Source: Escherichia coli (lineage in GTDB: Bacteria > Pseudomonadota > Gammaproteobacteria > Enterobacterales > Enterobacteriaceae). From it: a DNA stretch of 64,000 bases. The stretch lies in the NCBI RefSeq assembly GCF_003334305.1, contig NZ_QOWS01000004.1; one strand, given 5' to 3'. Both the position numbers and the translations under genes were made by a program. Numbering within the stretch: position 1 is the stretch's first letter; every line of letters starts with the position of its first letter. Shown here piece after piece: positions 6,613 to 27,130 of this stretch. The notes beneath the pieces are model-generated. The model saw nothing but the letters and a program-made list of their open reading frames with translations, was not told where the DNA came from and did no database searches.

Positions 6613-9312
6613 TCAACCAACCTTGCCAATCAATCCTTCCGTAGCCGAATACCCGCAACTTTCGTCATCGTTGACTAAAATCACGTTTGCCATCTCCGGA
6701 TCTTGTCGCTGTTCAATGCACCACAGCCTGAACGCCTCTCCCTCCAGTAAAGAAAACTCATCCCGATGTTTTTTCCACCAGCTTCGGCGCACTCTGACAA
6801 CGCTCATTTCCCATGCGTGAGCACCGGTGGCATAAGGCTTCACCACACCGTCAATACAGGTAGCCAGCCACAGGGAAACAGACTCCTCAGCCAGACGTGT
6901 CGACAGTTTTTCCGGGAGGTAATCGTTGATATTGGCGGCATAGCCGGGCCTGAAGTTCAGCACAAACTTTTTAGCCATTGCGCGATCGCAGTAATATTTG
7001 CCCACTTGCTCCTGCTCGCTGCGGGCAAATCCTTCCGGCATTACCACGTCCTCACCGTAGACGGATTCAATAAGAAGCCGGGCTGCGTATGGCATCTGAA
7101 TAGCACCTTGCTCACGCAGCACACGCTGCGTCAGCCAGATTCGCCCATGATCGGGATAGACAAATGCACTGTTACGCATGGCACTGCCAAACCATTCGTC
7201 GCCAGGAGAGTCGTCCCAGACGGGAGCCAGAATCAGCAATTCAGGGGGGGAACGCTCGTCCTTTCCGTCACGCTTTAACTGACCATTAATATCGCGGATA
7301 TGCCGCTGTAATCGTCCTGCTCGCTGAATCAGCAAATCAACAGGGGCCAGGTCGGAGATCATTTCGTCCAGGTCAATATCCACGCTTTGCTCAATTACTT
7401 GTGTACAAACAATGACTTGCGACGCTCTCTGTAAACTACAATATTTACCAAAGCGTGCCAGTGTCTCCGTTTCAATTCGCTGGCGATCGCTAAAAGCAAA
7501 GCGGCTATGAAAAAGTGAAAGGCTGGAAGCAGGAATGACGCCGCGGGCAAGCAGCTGACGATGAACCTTAATAGCGTCATCGACAGAATTCCGGATCCAG
7601 GCGATGCATTTCCCCTGACTTACCGCCGATTCGATACGCGCAATACACTCTTGTTCACTATGAAGCCAACCCACGCTGACGCTACGCTCAACGTCTTTGC
7701 GCGTCGCTACCCGGTGTGAGTTCACATCGGATTTCGTGACATGCGTCAGCCAGGGGTAATCATCCTTTTCCAGGAACGGAGCTTCTTGCAGGCCCTCTGT
7801 ACCCCGCGCAAAGGCAGCGACGAGTTTGTCGCGCTGCTGTTGAGATAACGTGGCAGAAAGCAAAATAACGCTGTTTCCGCCACGCGCCTGCCGCTCGATC
7901 AACCCTTCAAGAATGCACGACATGTAAGCGTCACAGGCGTGGATCTCATCAGCCAGCAGGATTTTGTTACTCAGCCCCAGAAGCCGCAGATTATTATGTT
8001 TGAACGGCATCACCGCCATCATCGCCTGATCCAGCGTGCCGACGCCAATTTCAGCCAGCAACGCCTTCTTGTTACTGTCGGCAAACCAGGCCGCACATCC
8101 CTGACTGAACGTTTGTTCATCCGGTTCTTCTGACCCGACTAAATCACCAGACCAGAGTGATTCATTAAAGCGGTCCATTAATGTGCGGGCACTATGTGCC
8201 AGCACCAGGCTGGGGCGGGATTCTGGCGAATAGAAAGCAAGCCAGGTTTTGACCAGCCGATCGTACATGGCATTGGCCGTTGCCATTGTTGGCAGACCAA
8301 AAAACAGCCCCTGAGCTTTCCCCGCAGCTATCAACCTGTGCGCCAGGATAAGCGCCGCTTCTGTTTTACCTGCGCCAGTCACATCTTCCAGAATAAATAA
8401 CTGCGGTCCTTGCTGGCTGATATCCAGATCCAGCACCTTTTGCTGTAACGGTGTCGGATTCTCAATAAAAGGAAACAGCGTATTAATTCCGTTGAAAGGC
8501 GCGACTTTTGCTTTTAGAGGAAAGACGGTTAAGGCGTTTTGAGCCTGAATTAAAGTTTTCTGCCAGTAACCTTTAATATCCATTGGGTGTGCGACGCGTG
8601 GAAAAAATCGCGTTGACGAACCCGTCCAGTCTGCGAGCACGACGGTTGCAGAGATATACCAGGAAAGGTGTTTTATAAGTTCAATGCCCTCATCATCATC
8701 CCAGAATGCGGGGATCTCTATGAGCGGAAACAGTGGTTTGATTTCAAGGAGAAAATCTCGTGCTGCAGCTTTGTCTTCAGGCAGAAAATTATCCAATTCA
8801 TCCATACGATCAGGGGGCCGACCATGATGCCCTGTCGTCACGGGCATCCACATTTCTATCACTCGCCTAAGTTTGCGCGGAGAGAGCGAAGATGAAGGAA
8901 GTAACTCCTGACATTCACTTAAATAATGATTCCACAACCAGTAGCCCAGCGTTGAATGAGAGATTTTTTCGTAATTTTTTCTGGCACCTTCCTGAATCTT
9001 GAGTTCAGGGGGCAGGTAAAGTTGTTGAAAAGAGCGGGCAAATTTTCCAATATCGTGCCAGCACAGCAACCAGGCGAAAAATTGAGCCGCCTGTTCCTTG
9101 TCAGAAATCCCTAATTGACGAAAATAATCAGCCAGCCCGAAGCAATTTCTTTTAACCATTAAATAGCCCATCGCGGCTACATCCAGCGAATGCCAGCAAA
9201 GAAGGTGATAGTCGTCGCCCCCGTCTTTCTCGCCGCGTCGGGTTTTTCCCCAGAAATCAAAAAAAGTCACAATATTTTTATCCTTCAGTAAACTTAAAGG
9301 ATATTTACGCAT
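6613..9312 (-). CDS. cas3: Cas3 HD nuclease / SF2 helicase
   Basis: 899-aa ORF; HD-type N-terminus (LLCWHSLDVAAMGYL), helicase motifs (DVTGAGKTEAA, DEIHACD); heads the cas operon. Confidence 0.95.
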   Translation of the reverse strand: MRKYPLSLLKDKNIVTFFDFWGKTRRGEKDGGDDYHLLCWHSLDVAAMGYLMVKRNCFGLADYFRQLGISDKEQAAQFFAWLLCWHDIGKFARSFQQLYLPPELKIQEGARKNYEKISHSTLGYWLWNHYLSECQELLPSSSLSPRKLRRVIEMWMPVTTGHHGRPPDRMDELDNFLPEDKAAARDFLLEIKPLFPLIEIPAFWDDDEGIELIKHLSWYISATVVLADWTGSSTRFFPRVAHPMDIKGYWQKTLIQAQNALTVFPLKAKVAPFNGINTLFPFIENPTPLQQKVLDLDISQQGPQLFILEDVTGAGKTEAALILAHRLIAAGKAQGLFFGLPTMATANAMYDRLVKTWLAFYSPESRPSLVLAHSARTLMDRFNESLWSGDLVGSEEPDEQTFSQGCAAWFADSNKKALLAEIGVGTLDQAMMAVMPFKHNNLRLLGLSNKILLADEIHACDAYMSCILEGLIERQARGGNSVILLSATLSQQQRDKLVAAFARGTEGLQEAPFLEKDDYPWLTHVTKSDVNSHRVATRKDVERSVSVGWLHSEQECIARIESAVSQGKCIAWIRNSVDDAIKVHRQLLARGVIPASSLSLFHSRFAFSDRQRIETETLARFGKYCSLQRASQVIVCTQVIEQSVDIDLDEMISDLAPVDLLIQRAGRLQRHIRDINGQLKRDGKDERSPPELLILAPVWDDSPGDEWFGSAMRNSAFVYPDHGRIWLTQRVLREQGAIQMPYAARLLIESVYGEDVVMPEGFARSEQEQVGKYYCDRAMAKKFVLNFRPGYAANINDYLPEKLSTRLAEESVSLWLATCIDGVVKPYATGAHAWEMSVVRVRRSWWKKHRDEFSLLEGEAFRLWCIEQRQDPEMANVILVNDDESCGYSATEGLIGKVG

Positions 9313-9757: not shown

Positions 9758-9865
9758 CTGGAACCTCGCGAATGCTTAACGCCAGACAGCCTCAAGCACC
9801 CGACGCCATTCTATACCTGATAATTCTTCCAGCGGCGTTCACGTTTAAAATCAGGAATACTGCTC

Positions 9866-9906
9866 GCAAAATAAAAACGCCCCCATCATTTCTGACAGAG
9901 GCGTTT
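9866..9906 (-). terminator. Probable cysJIH operon terminator
   Basis: On minus strand AAACGCC-18 nt loop-GGCGTTT followed by TTATTTTG, 18 nt after the cysH stop. Confidence 0.45.
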
Positions 9907-9923
9907 AATTTATCCGGCAATAT

Positions 9924-10658
9924 TTACCCTTCGTGCAATCCACATTCCCTTTTTAAGCCAAAGAAACGTGTTTCTTCTTCCGACATGCCAGGTTCCCATT
10001 TACGGGTTGTATGGGTATCACCGACCGATAAATATCCTTCATCCCATAATGGGTGATATTTCAGGCCATGTTTTTGCAGGTACTGATAAATAGTTCGGTT
10101 ATCCCAGTCGATAATCGGCAGCACTTTAAATACGCCACGCTGAATTGCCAGCACCGGTAAATTGGCGCGACTGCCGGATTGTTCACGGCGCAGGCCAGCA
10201 AACCAGGTTTGCGCGTTAAGTTCTTTCAGAGCCCGGTTCATCGGTTCGACTTTGTTGATGTCATTGTACTTTTCAATGCCTTCAACGCCCTGTTCCCACA
10301 GTTTGCCGTAGCGTGCTTCCTGCCAGGCGGCGCTTTCGGTAGCGCGGTACACTTTCAGGTTGAGCTTGAGTTTGTCCGTTAACTCGTCAATAAAGCGGTA
10401 GGTTTCCGGGAACAGATAGCCGGTGTCGGTGAGGATCACCGGAATATCCGGGTGAATCTGATTCACCAGATGCAGGCTCACCGCCGCCTGAATGCCAAAG
10501 CTGGAAGAAAGTACATATTCACCGGGCAGATTATCCAGCGCCCAGGCAACGCGGCCTTCAGCGTCCAGTTTTTCCAGTTCGGCGTTAGTTTCTGCCAGCG
10601 CCAGAATGCGATCTACCTTCGGCAGTTCGTTCAGGGCGTTTAGATCGAGTTTGGACAT
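9924..10658 (-). CDS. cysH: Phosphoadenosine phosphosulfate (PAPS) reductase
   Basis: 244 aa from [19 protein letters not shown]...; the longer ORF to 10811 runs across the REP and is rejected. Confidence 0.95.
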
Positions 10659-16540: not shown

Positions 16541-17116
16541 ATGCCCCTCTTACACCTGCTCCGCCAGAATCCGGTGATTGCTGCCGTTAAAGATAATGCC
16601 AGCCTGCAACTGGCAATCGACTCTGAATGCCAGTTTATTTCCGTGTTGTACGGCAATATCTGCACCATCAGTAATATCGTTAAAAAGATTAAGAACGCCG
16701 GGAAATATGCTTTTATTCATGTTGATTTGCTGGAAGGCGCGTCAAATAAAGAAGTCGTGATTCAGTTTTTGAAACTGGTGACCGAGGCGGACGGCATTAT
16801 CAGTACCAAAGCCTCAATGTTGAAAGCGGCAAGAGCGGAAGGTTTTTTCTGTATTCATCGCCTGTTTATTGTTGATTCAATTTCGTTTCACAACATTGAT
16901 AAGCAAGTTGCGCAATCGAATCCGGATTGTATTGAGATCCTGCCAGGCTGTATGCCCAAAGTGCTGGGCTGGGTGACAGAGAAAATCCGCCAACCGCTGA
17001 TTGCCGGTGGGCTGGTGTGCGATGAAGAAGATGCGCGTAATGCGATTAACGCGGGTGTCGTGGCGCTTTCCACCACGAATACCGGGGTCTGGACGTTAGC
17101 GAAAAAATTACTTTGA
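16541..17116 (+). CDS. ygcP: GlpP-family (glycerol-3-phosphate-responsive antiterminator-like) regulator
   Basis: 191-aa ORF MPLLHLLRQNPVIAAVKDNASLQ...; family assignment recalled from K-12 annotation, not re-derived by alignment. Confidence 0.75.
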   Translation: MPLLHLLRQNPVIAAVKDNASLQLAIDSECQFISVLYGNICTISNIVKKIKNAGKYAFIHVDLLEGASNKEVVIQFLKLVTEADGIISTKASMLKAARAEGFFCIHRLFIVDSISFHNIDKQVAQSNPDCIEILPGCMPKVLGWVTEKIRQPLIAGGLVCDEEDARNAINAGVVALSTTNTGVWTLAKKLL

Positions 17117-21832: not shown

Positions 21833-22618
21833 TTAGCGCACTAAATAACCACCATCGACCACTAATAAATGCCCATTGACATAATTTGAAGCCGGACTTG
21901 CGAGGAATACAGCTGCGCCCATTAAATCCTGAGTATCGCCCCAACGGTTTGCCGGAATATGATCAAGAACGCGCTGATTGGTTTCTGGATTACTGCGTGT
22001 CGCCAGCGTAATATCTGTTGCATAATAGCCAGGGGCGATACCATTTACCTGAATATTATATTGACCTAGCTCATCACAATAAGCTTTGGTGAACCCGGCA
22101 AGAGCATGTTTAGTGGCAGAATATGCAGGTGACCATTGTCCACCTAAGTAAGAGAACAATGAACAGATATTAATAATTTTGCCGCTTTTCTGCGGGATCA
22201 TAATTTTTGCAGCTTCATAGCTTAACTCGAATGCGGCGGTCAGGTTCACATCAATCATCGGATCCCAGTCGGCACGACCGAAGTCCAGCACCTTATTCAG
22301 CTTACAAATACCGGCATTGTTTACCAGAATATCAACTGTACCGAAACGCTCACAGCAAGCAGCGATAATCTTCTGCGGCGCGCCTTCTGCGGTGATATCC
22401 ACCTGCATGAAGTCCACCTCAACACCCTGTTTTTCAATCATTTCCTTTGTTTCGCCGTTATCTTTGACGAAACTAGGAATAAAGATATTTGCGCCAGCTT
22501 TGGCCAACGCCATGGCAAATGCCTGGCCTAAACCGCTATTCCCACCGGTAACAATTGCGGTTTTACCTTTCAGTGAGAAAAAATCCATTGAGAACGCATT
22601 GAGAGATTCGATTGACAT
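21833..22618 (-). CDS. ygcW: Short-chain dehydrogenase/reductase (KduD / gluconate-5-dehydrogenase-like)
   Basis: 261 aa from MSIESLNAFSMDFFSLKGKTAIVTGGNSGLGQAF (TGxxxGxG), later NNAG and YxxxK elements. Confidence 0.88.
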   Translation of the reverse strand: MSIESLNAFSMDFFSLKGKTAIVTGGNSGLGQAFAMALAKAGANIFIPSFVKDNGETKEMIEKQGVEVDFMQVDITAEGAPQKIIAACCERFGTVDILVNNAGICKLNKVLDFGRADWDPMIDVNLTAAFELSYEAAKIMIPQKSGKIINICSLFSYLGGQWSPAYSATKHALAGFTKAYCDELGQYNIQVNGIAPGYYATDITLATRSNPETNQRVLDHIPANRWGDTQDLMGAAVFLASPASNYVNGHLLVVDGGYLVR

Positions 22619-22642
22619 AGTTAGCTCCAATTTCCGTAAGGC

Positions 22643-22690
22643 AAAAAAAAAGAAAGGTAACTTCCCCCGCGAGAGGGAAGTTACCTTTCT
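22643..22690 (-). terminator. Intrinsic-terminator-type hairpin in the ygcW 5' leader (candidate attenuator)
   Basis: Minus-strand RNA: AGAAAGGUAACUUCCC-UCUCGCGG-GGGAAGUUACCUUUCU followed by U8; perfect 16-bp stem; U-tract ends 24 nt before the ygcW ATG. Confidence 0.65.
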
Positions 22691-22742
22691 CATTATCTCT
22701 GGTAACTGGAGATAATTTTTAGCATAACGGCATAACTGCTAA

Positions 22743-22758
22743 TGTGATCGTAATCACA
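22743..22758. promoter_or_regulatory. CRP-binding site (perfect TGTGA-N6-TCACA)
   Basis: TGTGATCGTAATCACA in the ygcW/yqcE divergent intergenic region; overlapping TGTGA repeats follow at 22760 and about 22792-22808. Confidence 0.65.
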
Positions 22759-22864
22759 GTGTGATATTCGTATTGTCAAATAGTTTTAAAAAGCAGAAGC
22801 GTGATTACTCTCACACAACACCTCTGCTTTCCATGTTATTTCTTATTGCAATTACTAGAGACCT

Positions 22865-22912
22865 GAGAAAAGTAATCCACCTGAAAGGGCGGCTTACTTT
22901 TCTCTTTTTTTT
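22865..22912 (+). terminator. Intrinsic-terminator-type hairpin in the yqcE 5' leader (candidate attenuator)
   Basis: GAGAAAAGTAA-18 nt loop-TTACTTTTCTC followed by T8; T-tract ends 24 nt before the yqcE ATG; 5' arm resembles that of the ygcW leader hairpin. Confidence 0.6.
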
Positions 22913-22936
22913 GTCTATTACAAATGGGAATACGAT

Positions 22937-24214
22937 ATGCAACACAACTCATATCGCCGTTGGATAACCCTCGCGATAATTAGTTTTAGCGGCGGCGTTA
23001 GTTTCGACCTGGCTTATTTACGTTATATTTATCAAATTCCCATGGCGAAATTTATGGGATTCAGCAATACCGAGATAGGTTTAATAATGAGTACCTTTGG
23101 TATTGCGGCTATTATTCTTTATGCCCCCAGCGGCGTTATTGCCGATAAATTTTCACACCGCAAAATGATTACTTCCGCGATGATCATTACCGGATTACTG
23201 GGTCTGTTAATGGCAACGTATCCACCGCTGTGGGTAATGCTCTGTATTCAGGTCGCCTTTGCGATAACGACGATTTTAATGCTGTGGTCGGTGTCGATTA
23301 AAGCCGCCTCGTTGCTGGGCGATCATAGTGAGCAAGGGAAAATTATGGGCTGGATGGAAGGGCTGCGCGGCGTCGGTGTAATGTCGCTGGCGGTGTTTAC
23401 CATGTGGGTCTTTTCTCGCTTTGCACCGGATGACAGCGCCAGCCTGAAAACAGTCATTATCATCTACAGTGTGGTTTACATCTTGTTGGGGATTCTGTGC
23501 TGGTTTTTTGTTAGCGATAACAACAACCTGCGCAGTGCCAATAACGAAGAAAAACAGTCATTCCAGCTTAGCGACATCCTTGCCGTTTTGCGTATCAGCA
23601 CCACCTGGTATTGCAGCATGGTGATTTTTGGTGTCTTCACAATCTACGCCATTCTGAGTTACTCCACCAACTATCTGACCGAAATGTACGGCATGTCGCT
23701 GGTGGCAGCGAGCTACATGGGGATTGTGATCAACAAAATCTTCCGCGCGCTGTGCGGCCCACTTGGCGGCATTATCACCACCTACAGTAAAGTGAAATCC
23801 CCTACCCGCGTGATCCAAATCCTTTCCGTACTCGGCCTGCTGGCGTTAACTGCCCTGCTCGTCACGAACTCTAACCCGCAATCGGTCGCGATGGGGATTG
23901 GCCTGATTTTACTGCTGGGATTCACCTGTTACGCCTCACGCGGGCTGTACTGGGCCTGCCCTGGCGAAGCGAGAACACCGTCTTACATTATGGGCACCAC
24001 GGTAGGTATTTGTTCGGTGATTGGATTCCTGCCGGATGTCTTCGTTTACCCGATTATCGGCCACTGGCAAGACACCCTGCCCGCAGCAGAAGCCTACCGC
24101 AATATGTGGCTGATGGGAATGGCGGCGCTTGCCATGGTGATTGTCTTTACCTTTTTGCTGTTCCAAAAAATTCGTACTGCTGATAGCGCCCCCGCAATGG
24201 CTAGCAGCAAGTAA
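22937..24214 (+). CDS. yqcE: MFS transporter
   Basis: 425-aa ORF, multi-pass hydrophobic. Confidence 0.88.
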   Translation: MQHNSYRRWITLAIISFSGGVSFDLAYLRYIYQIPMAKFMGFSNTEIGLIMSTFGIAAIILYAPSGVIADKFSHRKMITSAMIITGLLGLLMATYPPLWVMLCIQVAFAITTILMLWSVSIKAASLLGDHSEQGKIMGWMEGLRGVGVMSLAVFTMWVFSRFAPDDSASLKTVIIIYSVVYILLGILCWFFVSDNNNLRSANNEEKQSFQLSDILAVLRISTTWYCSMVIFGVFTIYAILSYSTNYLTEMYGMSLVAASYMGIVINKIFRALCGPLGGIITTYSKVKSPTRVIQILSVLGLLALTALLVTNSNPQSVAMGIGLILLLGFTCYASRGLYWACPGEARTPSYIMGTTVGICSVIGFLPDVFVYPIIGHWQDTLPAAEAYRNMWLMGMAALAMVIVFTFLLFQKIRTADSAPAMASSK

Positions 24215-25751: not shown

Positions 25752-25765
25752 TGAACATACCTGAA

Positions 25766-25903
25766 TGGTTATCCCCGCTGACGCGGGGAACATAAGTTCG
25801 ACAACTTAAAAAATGATAACAAGTCCGGTTTATCCCCGCTGATGCAGGGAACATAATAAAAACTTTAACTAGTTCGGTTTATCCCTGTTTTTACAAGGAA
25901 TAT
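25766..25903 (-). CRISPR. Degenerate CRISPR remnant (three decayed I-E repeats)
   Basis: TGGTTATCCCCGCTGACGCGGGGAACAT, CGGTTTATCCCCGCTGATGCAGGGAACAT, CGGTTTATCCCTGTTTTTACAAGGAATAT; first interval 32 nt, second 20 nt. Confidence 0.8.
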
Positions 25904-26357
25904 TAACTACACTCGATGTCTTTAGAATAAAAGACAATACGAATCGCACTTTATCAATTTTCACTTAAAGTATGAACTGGATATCTTTATTCATAAGAAC
26001 TATTCATCAACAGCGTATAGAGGCGGTTATGTAAAACCACTCATTAGCCTCAAAACAAAGACAAACTTCCAGATTTATTACTTAACCAATGAATAACAAG
26101 CTTAAAAAATATACTGTTATTCTAAAGAAAAAATTAACAGGCATTAATTCAATATTAAAAAAATAATAGATTAAAATTTCTTAACGATTTAAGAATCATA
26201 CAAATAACACTTTGATTAAATTTAATTTTTTGTATCGATAATTGTGAACCTCTCTGGCATGGAGAACTATTTTGAACATGAGGTGTTACGTGGATATGTT
26301 GCTTATTACAAGTACTGCTAATATAAAAACTTGAGAAAGAGATAACGGGTTATATGG

Positions 26358-26935
26358 TGGTTTATCCCCGCTGGCGCGGGGAGCTCAACATCGGAAACGG
26401 CTTCGCGGCGGCGGCGTCCGGTTTATCCCCGCTGGCGCGGGGAGCTCTACGTGAAGAATATTTGCAACACCCGCAAGAACGGTTTATCCCCGCTGGCGCG
26501 GGGAGCTCGGCATAGCCAGGCTGATCCGGCGACGGCCTTACGGTTTATCCCCGCTGGCGCGGGGAACACTGTTCGGCGGGGCGGTAGTACCACTGTTTTT
26601 TCGGTTTATCCCCGCTGGCGCGGGGAACACATCAACATGCAGCGCGAACGGCTGCCCCTCGCCGGTTTATCCCCGCTGGCGCGGGGAACACTCTTATTCA
26701 GTCCCCTTTTCCATCTGCTGTGGCGGTTTATCCCCGCTGGCGCGGGGAACACGTAAATTGCGACGTCCTGCGCCAGTAATTCAACGGTTTATCCCCGCTG
26801 GCGCGGGGAACACGATGCGGCAGCGGCGGCGGGAAGTTATCGCGGCGGTTTATCCCCGCTGGCGCGGGGAACACCTTTCAATATAGTCAGAAAAGTCTTT
26901 TGGCAACGGTTTATCCCCGCTGGCGCGGGGAACAC
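26358..26935 (-). CRISPR. Type I-E CRISPR array 2: 10 repeats, 9 spacers of 32 nt
   Basis: Repeats at 26358,26419,26480,26541,26602,26663,26724,26785,26846,26907; the three leader-distal repeats end GAGCTC rather than GAACAC; leader at the 3' side on plus, so minus-strand transcription. Confidence 0.97.
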
Positions 26936-27130
26936 TCTAAACATAACCTATTATTAATTAATGATTTTTTAAGCCAGTCACAATCTACCAACTTTATAGT
27001 ATCACACAAACAACACATCCATTATGTTAAAGAGCACTTAATCCATTGATTAAAAAGGTAAATATTTAAAATAACTCTATACAAACTAAAATCTACCAAA
27101 CTTTACCGCAATAATTTTCACTCCAGCGAA
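26936..27130 (-). promoter_or_regulatory. Leader of CRISPR array 2
   Basis: AT-rich; shares CTAA-CATA and ACAATCTACCAACT motifs with the array-1 leader; a second AAATCTACCAAACT copy near 27090. Confidence 0.75.

Follow-up and report, generated by a model that had tools for sequence, protein, structure and literature searches.

The 318-bp gap between the divergent starts of ygcW (minus strand) and yqcE (plus strand), located in a 64,000-nucleotide (nt) stretch of Escherichia coli DNA that we refer to as the window, holds two leaders that are arranged as mirror images of each other, each of which carries an intrinsic terminator on the way to its gene and a weaker hairpin, P1, that excludes this terminator. 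With a probability of about 0.7, we propose that both transcripts are initiated in dependence on cyclic AMP (cAMP) and CRP, that they are ended by default at the intrinsic terminators, and that this termination is relieved by YgcP, a PF04309 protein encoded in the same cluster, which in its ligand-bound form would stabilise P1. An initial annotation of the gap, made from the sequence alone, had read it as a pair of attenuators around a CRP box; its interpretation is supported in all parts that are open to a computational test or to comparison with published maps.

The two terminators are located on the sense strands of the genes that they precede (positions are those of the window):

22643..22691, minus strand: intrinsic terminator of the ygcW leader; 5' arm GAGAAAGGUAACUUCCC from 22691 to 22675, 3' arm from 22666 to 22651, U8 from 22650 to 22643.
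22865..22912, plus strand: intrinsic terminator of the yqcE leader; 11-bp base helix of 22865-22875 with 22894-22904, inner C-G pairs, U8 at 22905-22912.

The stem of the ygcW leader is a perfect helix of 16 bp (22651-22666 with 22675-22690; 19 pairs in the ViennaRNA fold), and 24 nt (22642-22619) lie between its U8 tract and the ATG at 22618; the T8 tract of the yqcE terminator is likewise located 24 nt before the ATG at 22937. The coordinates of both structures in the initial annotation are exact. The 82-nt ygcW leader folds with -32.2 kcal/mol (z = -5.05; 0 of 200 shuffles as good) and the 82-nt yqcE leader with -23.3 kcal/mol (z = -3.51; 1 of 200 shuffles as good); the isolated terminator hairpins have energies of -27.8 kcal/mol (ygcW) and -19.3 kcal/mol (yqcE), and the ygcW hairpin ranks first among the terminator-like sites in the 14 kb that were scanned. 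The reported likeness of the 5' arms is also borne out: the motif GAGAAARGTAA is confined to the two leader hairpins in the 64 kb searched, and the ygcW and yqcE leaders are inverted copies of each other well past the hairpin arms.

Both structures coincide with transcript ends in published maps. Romero et al. (2014) have listed ecr2774 (minus strand, 73 nt) and ecr2775 (plus strand, 63 nt) in the ygcW-yqcE gap as 'potential novel sRNAs' (small RNAs); both species were seen by RNA sequencing (RNA-seq; Table S5) and ecr2775 also by northern blot, and they were assigned to the class 'simple, single extended stem-loop, perhaps REP-like' (REP, repetitive extragenic palindromic). We have calibrated the ecr coordinates on CsrB and MicA against NC_000913.3 (offset +1978) and tied them to the window through the position of ygcW and the alignment of MG1655, which contains no indels; after calibration, ecr2774 runs from 22711 to 22638 and ecr2775 from 22850 to 22913. 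Their 3' ends are thus located at the U-tracts, and their 5' ends are located 20 and 15 nt ahead of the terminator stems, giving the following transcription starts:

22709..22711, minus strand: ygcW transcription start; 5' end of ecr2774, with a start 2-3 nt before the leader box also implied by the fixed CRP-to-box distance.
22849..22850, plus strand: yqcE transcription start; 5' end of ecr2775.

Since these starts are mapped upstream of the hairpins, the objection that transcription might begin downstream of them fails. In the Term-seq data of Adams et al. (2021), the dominant 3' ends are located 38 nt before ygcW and 36 nt before yqcE (window positions 22656 and 22901), both as unannotated entries, with intrinsic terminator scores of 15.8 and 11.4 (cut-off 3.0) and Rho scores of 0.50 and 0.61, respectively; given these Rho scores, termination is Rho-independent. 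Transcription starts upstream of the hairpins and largely stops at them in lysogeny broth (LB) and in glucose medium. Because no E. coli promoter can fit in the 24 nt downstream of either hairpin, the mRNAs must read through it: the attenuator layout, in which transcripts have to traverse a terminator, agrees with the mapped 5' ends upstream of the hairpins and the mapped 3' ends at or within them.

The leader motif has the consensus AGUUACY-AGAG-N3-5-GAGAAARGUAAC-helix-U-tract, where the AGUUACY segment contains the 5' box. The search for an alternative antiterminator structure, which the initial annotation had proposed as a check, has led to the hairpin P1, formed between the box and the RGUAAY segment:

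22680..22706, minus strand: antiterminator P1 of the ygcW leader; GUUACC (22706 to 22701) pairs with GGUAAC (22685 to 22680), enclosing the 15-nt loop AGAGAUAAUGAGAAA.
22851..22876, plus strand: antiterminator P1 of the yqcE leader; AUUACU (22851-22856) pairs with AGUAAU (22871-22876), enclosing the loop AGAGACCUGAGAAA.

P1 closes a purine loop of 14-15 nt (AGAGA-N3-4-GAGAAA), and its 3' strand lies within the 5' arm of the terminator, so that P1 and the terminator are mutually exclusive. The nascent 5' domain has P1 as its minimum-free-energy fold, with -4.7 kcal/mol in the ygcW leader and -1.0 kcal/mol in the yqcE leader; as P1 is weak in comparison with the terminators, termination is expected by default, and a factor is needed in order to keep P1 closed.

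Both helices covary in an alignment of 78 distinct leader sequences, where covariation had initially been suggested as a check among Enterobacteriaceae. The P1 columns 2-7 with 27-32 are paired in 94% of the cells, as opposed to 15-55% when the partners are slid, and compensatory changes occur at three pairs: 2/32 (GC in 58 sequences, AU in 19), 7/27 (UA in 59, CG in 15) and 5/29 (AU in 77, GC in 1). The base helix of the terminator is 97% paired (column pair 27/61: AU in 62, GC in 15), and in its apical part the sequence varies with the pairing being maintained. The two helices can be told apart at column 32, where yqcE-type leaders have a C-to-U change that is matched by a G-to-A change in the box, with the facing base of the terminator 3' arm being left unpaired; because this change is compensated in the box and not in the terminator 3' arm, P1 has been selected in its own right, i.e. 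it covaries independently of the terminator.

Between the two leaders are located two CRP sites, one for each promoter:

22743..22758, no strand assigned: CRP site 1, TGTGATCGTAATCACA, at the class II position (about -41.5) for the ygcW promoter.
22800..22815, no strand assigned: CRP site 2, cGTGATTACTCTCACA, at the class II position for the yqcE promoter.

The initial annotation had described a single perfect CRP box between the hairpins; this box is site 1, and the count has to be corrected by the addition of site 2. In 56 of 56 Enterobacterales loci that were analysed, site 1 is centred 43.5-45.5 bp away from the base with which the ygcW-side box begins, and site 2 is centred 42.5-44.5 bp away from the yqcE-side box; these distances are fixed, although the leader-to-leader (promoter-to-promoter) spacing varies from 126 to 262 bp. 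Measured from the mapped 5' ends, the site centres are at 40.5 and 42.5 bp, as is characteristic of class II CRP promoters (near -41.5). It follows from the fixed class II geometry that each transcript starts 2-3 nt before its own box, in agreement with the mapped 5' ends; the gap is made of two independent, back-to-back class II CRP-dependent promoters. The binding of CRP to site 1 has been observed in vitro (Footprint-seq, Kd 1.7 nM) and in vivo, by chromatin immunoprecipitation sequencing (ChIP-seq) in enterotoxigenic E. coli (ETEC), which is in line with the cAMP-CRP control that was originally postulated; site 1 has also been predicted.

The position of the yqcE promoter points to a candidate -10 element:

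22834..22842, plus strand: TGtTATTTC, a putative extended -10 of the yqcE promoter, judging from its location 7 nt ahead of the 5' end mapped at 22850.

The ATGTTATTT block is kept in close relatives. In the putative -10 region, the strain of the window and MG1655 differ at 22842 (C/A) and at 22848 (G/T), with K-12 having TATTAT, and the strength of the yqcE promoter may therefore differ among strains. Upstream of the minus-strand leader box in Vibrio hannami (locus L067, about 6620-6640), a perfect CRP-type palindrome, TGTGAGCATTTTCACA, occurs at a distance of about 45 bp; judging from this sequence, CRP control of the ygc cluster seems to be conserved in Vibrionaceae.

We have scanned one genome per species with YqcE, obtaining 59 loci that range from Escherichia to Serratia, Erwinia, Pantoea and Budvicia, 58 of which are usable. 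Wherever a locus holds both genes, ygcW and yqcE are divergent neighbours, and 57 of the 58 usable Enterobacterales loci contain exactly two complete motif copies, one on each strand, with no further copy in up to 21 kb. Of the 59 loci fetched, 53 have an orthologue of ygcP, and four of the other six are too short to include this gene. The closest relatives of YgcP outside Enterobacterales (54-62% identity), examined in Vibrio hannami, Thalassobacillus, Clostridium sediminicola, Sporomusa and Fodinisporobacter, are encoded beside the same gene set, i.e. a short-chain dehydrogenase/reductase (SDR), an FGGY kinase, an FAD oxidase and a transporter, usually with electron-transfer flavoprotein (ETF) subunits. 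The same motif is located in the operon leaders of Vibrio, Thalassobacillus (whose leader reads AGTTACTAGAGCCGAGAGAAAAGTAACTTCCC...GCTTTTCTC-T8) and Clostridium, where it begins 6-8 nt past the -10 box; in Sporomusa and Fodinisporobacter the motif has diverged, with P1 still being possible and the terminator pairing being kept via compensatory changes. Vibrio, Clostridium, Sporomusa and Fodinisporobacter have two copies each. In all these lineages, the motif is located ahead of SDR, FGGY-kinase and FAD-oxidase genes, and their cluster also encodes a YgcP-type PF04309 protein.

In the 64-kb window, a covariance model of the leader (R1) recovers nothing besides the two known copies; it scores the non-enterobacterial copies with E-values from 4e-14 to 2e-5 (0.017 for the second copy of Fodinisporobacter). 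The specificity of the motif has been controlled by a motif-first scan of metagenomes, in which 114 stretches matched and the 80 that were listed have been analysed: 64 of these are complete instances, all of them adjoining ygc genes, one further instance has lost its U-tract by deletion and one is cut by the end of the contig, while none of the remaining 14, which are chance matches with no terminator, adjoins ygc genes. The matches listed are mostly E. coli duplicates and add one lineage (L130).

Several loci depart from the common arrangement. In Limnobaculum eriocheiris (L037, 9871-10000), the gap has shrunk to 130 bp, with one palindromic hairpin flanked by A9 and T9 and with both promoters and both 5' boxes gone; this looks like a collapse by recombination between the inverted leaders, or like an assembly artefact. 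In Serratia, Erwinia, Pantoea and their relatives (L036, L040, L041, L043, L046-L049, L051-L053, L055-L057 and L062), ygcP has moved downstream of ygcE, to the opposite strand, and in most of them ygcS has moved along; both leaders remain in the ygcW-yqcE gap of these loci, and the yqcE-side box has a 3-nt insertion (GTTACTGAANGAG). In Klebsiella spallanzanii (L010) and Citrobacter youngae (L012), an insertion of about 127 bp that starts with TCCCGATGAGCTTACTGTAGTAAGTGATTCGGGTGAGTG is located between the yqcE terminator and the start codon (about 9851-10000), with the leader being intact; it looks like an element of the ERIC/IRU type (enterobacterial repetitive intergenic consensus or intergenic repeat unit). 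Five loci outside Enterobacterales (L064, L065, L067, L188 and L189) have transporters of the BCCT or OpuA type (betaine/choline/carnitine-like), either besides the major facilitator superfamily (MFS) permeases or in their place, and the second leader copy of Sporomusa (L188, 17130-17190) precedes a BCCT gene; these transporters may hint at the compound on which the cluster acts.

GlpP-family proteins are RNA-binding antiterminators that relieve a leader terminator in response to glycerol-3-phosphate. The GlpP-like character that was initially attributed to YgcP is confirmed by a full-length match with Pfam PF04309 (E = 1.6e-62, model positions 1-173 of 173) and by a match with the GlpP structure PDB 3KTS (E = 1e-27); NCBIfam holds no model for YgcP. 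Its orthologues travel with the motif across phyla. YgcP-type proteins are 51-65% identical among themselves across phyla and GlpP-type proteins 44-57%, with 27-41% between the two subfamilies, and each subfamily goes with its own leader consensus, as is predicted by a cognate pairing of protein and RNA.

The GlpP-type leaders offer the closest comparison. According to a review, GlpP bound to glycerol-3-phosphate binds the antiterminator; the Bacillus subtilis glpD 5' untranslated region (UTR) alone confers GlpP- and glycerol-dependent control on foreign promoters. We have compared eight GlpP-type leaders, namely B. subtilis glpD and seven leaders located beside GlpP genes in four other Bacillales (glpF and glpD of Priestia megaterium, Lysinibacillus and Paenibacillus, and glpF of Lentibacillus). 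A terminator is present in the 5' UTR of all eight; seven start with AGUUAA, six of them with AGUUAAUA. Their layout consists of a -10 box, 3-11 nt, AGUUAAUA, N4-9, and a short strand that is complementary to the 5' arm of the terminator; in five of the eight, a tandem (G)GAGA-N3-4-GGAGA occurs, and the terminator arm begins with its second GGAGA. A compact version of this layout is seen in the ygc leaders, with the AGUUA box itself serving as the P1 strand.

The ygc and glp systems (glpD, glpFK and glpTQ of B. subtilis) share a regulator of PF04309 and the order of elements, i.e. a promoter, a protein-binding 5' segment and an intrinsic terminator in the 5' UTR; they also share the AGUUA transcript start, the short stem with its 3' strand inside the terminator 5' arm and, in most of the GlpP leaders compared, the tandem GAGA-N3-4-GAGA in the loop of this stem, as well as catabolite control and operons that encode an FGGY kinase and an FAD-dependent oxidase. 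They differ in the terminator arm (GAGAAARGUAAC in ygc, GGAGAGNCCAC in glp), in the means of catabolite control (class II CRP sites as opposed to CcpA/cre), in the presence of two divergent ygc leaders in one intergenic region, and in the genes themselves, which in ygc encode an SDR, an ETF-linked FAD oxidase and MFS or BCCT transporters rather than glycerol functions. The shared motifs suggest that GlpP-family recognition could involve the 5'-terminal AGUUA box and the tandem GAGA in the antiterminator loop; no defined recognition motif for the GlpP family has turned up in searchable papers.

Other leader systems share parts of this arrangement. In the BglG/SacY/LicT systems with their ribonucleic antiterminator (RAT) targets, such as E. 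coli bgl, a weak antiterminator hairpin likewise shares sequence with the terminator 5' arm and is stabilised by a protein that recognises RNA sequence-specifically, and initiation is CRP-dependent, as here; the ygc regulator is, however, a PF04309 protein with a fold like the triosephosphate isomerase (TIM) barrel, there is no logic of phosphorylation by the phosphotransferase system (PTS), and the RNA consensus is unrelated. A regulator of the CAT/PRD type (co-antiterminator domain with PTS regulation domains) is found neither in the K-12 annotation of the cluster nor in the Pfam lists of the Firmicute and Vibrio clusters. HutP of B. subtilis is activated by a ligand and keeps the hut leader terminator from forming by binding short repeats with purines (NAG triplets), which are located ahead of this terminator and inside it, but it has another fold, its targets are three UAG/NAG triplets in two clusters, and no P1 hairpin is involved.

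The circuit that we propose from these elements would operate as follows. cAMP-CRP would start both transcripts, each 2-3 nt before the leader box, and P1, a weak 6-bp hairpin between the box and RGUAAY, would fold first on the nascent RNA. If no factor intervenes, the terminator, whose 5' arm is GAGAAARGUAAY..., would outcompete P1, and the polymerase would stop about 24 nt before the start codon; the terminated products would be the RNAs of 63-73 nt, corresponding to the state observed in glucose medium and in LB. In the presence of the inducer, YgcP would bind the 5' domain, i.e. the box and the tandem GAGA loop, and keep P1 shut; with P1 held, the terminator could not nucleate, and ygcWUSRQ and yqcE-ygcE would be transcribed. 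The inducer is probably the phosphorylated compound that the FGGY kinase YgcE produces, in analogy to glycerol-3-phosphate.

Several points weigh against this proposal. The binding of YgcP to the leader RNA, its dependence on a ligand and the identity of this ligand are steps that we infer, and ygcP is located in a separate transcription unit, ygcNOP, which is free of the motif. The P1 of the yqcE leader is very weak at -1.0 kcal/mol, and pair 7/27 of P1 is replaced by a C-A mismatch in four Rahnella/Ewingella leaders; furthermore, the aligned leaders are related by descent, so that shuffle controls overstate significance. The Term-seq ends fall a few nt inside the AU-rich bases of the stems, unlike the RNA-seq ends of Romero et al. 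(2014), which are located at the U-tracts; this offset is probably due to exonucleolytic 3' trimming after termination. As for the comparison with GlpP, the model R1 scores the classic glp leaders (glpD of Lysinibacillus and P. megaterium) with E-values of 0.13-0.32, like unrelated terminators; the likeness between the ygc and glp leaders is one of architecture and of short motifs read by eye after the fact, and homology is not statistically established. Lastly, the high sequence conservation of the leader RNA would also fit a riboswitch that works independently of protein.

Such a riboswitch, in which the 5' box, AGAG and GAGAAA would form a small aptamer for a pathway metabolite and stabilise P1, with YgcP playing a role elsewhere, e.g. 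an enzymatic one, is rather unlikely. The nucleotides that are near-invariant across Gammaproteobacteria and three Firmicute classes are typical of riboswitches, P1 and the terminator form a mutually exclusive expression platform, and an enzymatic role of YgcP is conceivable given the TIM-barrel-like nature of PF04309 proteins; likewise, small riboswitches such as preQ1-I and guanidine-II are built of a compact, conserved 5' domain that competes with an intrinsic terminator. The candidate aptamer, however, measures only about 30 nt with a single 6-bp helix, and it matches no Rfam family: a scan of the region against Rfam 15 at E <= 10 has returned noise only (SurA, 22.8 bits against a gathering threshold of 100; L20_leader, 15.5 bits against 58.7). 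Unlike the small riboswitches, the ygc motif is invariably linked to a gene for a dedicated RNA-binding protein: in every cluster examined that had enough DNA, the motif is accompanied by a YgcP-type gene, which is the sole regulator-like gene, and the same layout is found in the GlpP-responsive glpD leader, which GlpP reportedly binds. It is improbable that the 5' domain of about 30 nt would be a new, very small riboswitch class that senses a probably phosphorylated intermediate, with YgcP as an accessory or enzymatic protein; in a weaker form of this idea, the RNA and the protein would form a joint ligand pocket.

We consider it very unlikely that the hairpins belong to independent genes, i.e. 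that ecr2774 and ecr2775 are trans-acting sRNAs or REP-like stable fragments of decay and not cis regulators. The 63-73-nt species are abundant in RNA-seq, ecr2775 is visible on a northern blot, and a stem followed by a U-tract is the usual Hfq-binding module; yet in most loci, and across phyla, the motif keeps a short and near-constant distance to the start codon of the same gene families, and in E. coli the 24 nt downstream of the hairpin are too short for a promoter, so that the mRNAs must read through it. A trans role of the terminated by-products would be additional to the cis role. REP elements occur in many dispersed genomic copies, which as a rule follow the 3' ends of genes or separate convergent ones. 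The motif, on the other hand, is specific to its locus in the 64-kb window and in the 58 Enterobacterales loci; we have rejected a REP-like dispersed repeat, as the motif is unique to this gap in the window and in loci of up to 21 kb, and it is always located in 5' UTRs.

Least probable is translation-coupled attenuation, where the AUG at 22693-22691, which overlaps GAGAAA, would start a leader peptide or an N-terminal extension and the occupancy by ribosomes would decide on the terminator: the ATG at 22693 is located inside the antiterminator loop and is in frame with ygcW, in an open reading frame of 286 amino acids that runs through the hairpin, but of the 78 aligned leaders only 38 have ATGAGRAA, the E. 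coli yqcE leader and the distant Vibrio, Thalassobacillus and Clostridium leaders lack the AUG (on these two grounds we have rejected a leader-peptide mechanism), the AUG lies just 17-19 nt or so from the 5' end with no good Shine-Dalgarno sequence ahead of it, and the homologues of ygcW align from the ATG at 22618.

The preferred reading, i.e. CRP-dependent initiation followed by YgcP-mediated antitermination, gives a concrete and testable control circuit for an 11-gene cluster of E. coli K-12 (ygcNOP, ygcQRSUW and yqcE-ygcE), and it would assign RNA targets to YgcP, which has so far been named by homology alone. The two CRP promoters, the defined antiterminator P1 and the leader RNA consensus, which is absent from Rfam, are new, and the motif spans Enterobacterales, Vibrio, Bacilli, Clostridia and Negativicutes. 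The leaders account for two 'sRNAs' and two Term-seq 3' ends that had been orphans in the published E. coli maps, and they could also be used as reporters in a screen for the inducer and hence for the substrate of the pathway. Literature searches on ygcP, ygcW/yqcE, the other ygc genes, ecr2774/5 and PF04309 have returned no paper on leader regulation or on the substrate of the cluster; the view of the initial annotation that the regulation of this locus had not been described holds for attenuation, but earlier catalogues already list the short RNAs, the 3' ends and the CRP site, although these had not been read as parts of attenuators.

The genes on which the circuit would act, and the gene of the proposed regulator, are annotated as follows:

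21833..22618, minus strand: ygcW, SDR; first gene of the ygcW-U-S-R-Q unit behind the minus-strand leader.
22937..24214, plus strand: yqcE, MFS transporter; first gene of the yqcE-ygcE unit behind the plus-strand leader.
16541..17116, plus strand: ygcP, PF04309 (G3P_antiterm) protein; proposed trans-acting antiterminator and sole regulator-like gene of the cluster.

The order of the genes is queD, ygcNOP (plus strand), ygcQRSUW (minus strand), yqcE-ygcE (plus strand), an array of clustered regularly interspaced short palindromic repeats (CRISPR) and queE, with ygcP being located 5.5 kb from the ygcW-yqcE gap; the NCBIfam matches of the ygcW protein are KduD-like SDR models. Across the ygc stretch, the window is 99.3% identical to E. 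coli K-12, and a matching stretch has been found in 5,072 of 5,426 complete genomes.

Downstream of ygcE, the program TRF has reported no repeats in the CRISPR region, where another repeat search has detected the array: type I-E-like repeats (CGGTTTATCCCCGCTGGCGCGGGGAACAC, 61-bp period) are located at 25756-25859 and at 26349-26940, with two degenerate units in the first block followed by an array of ten repeats, corresponding to the known ygcE-queE array that is annotated in K-12.

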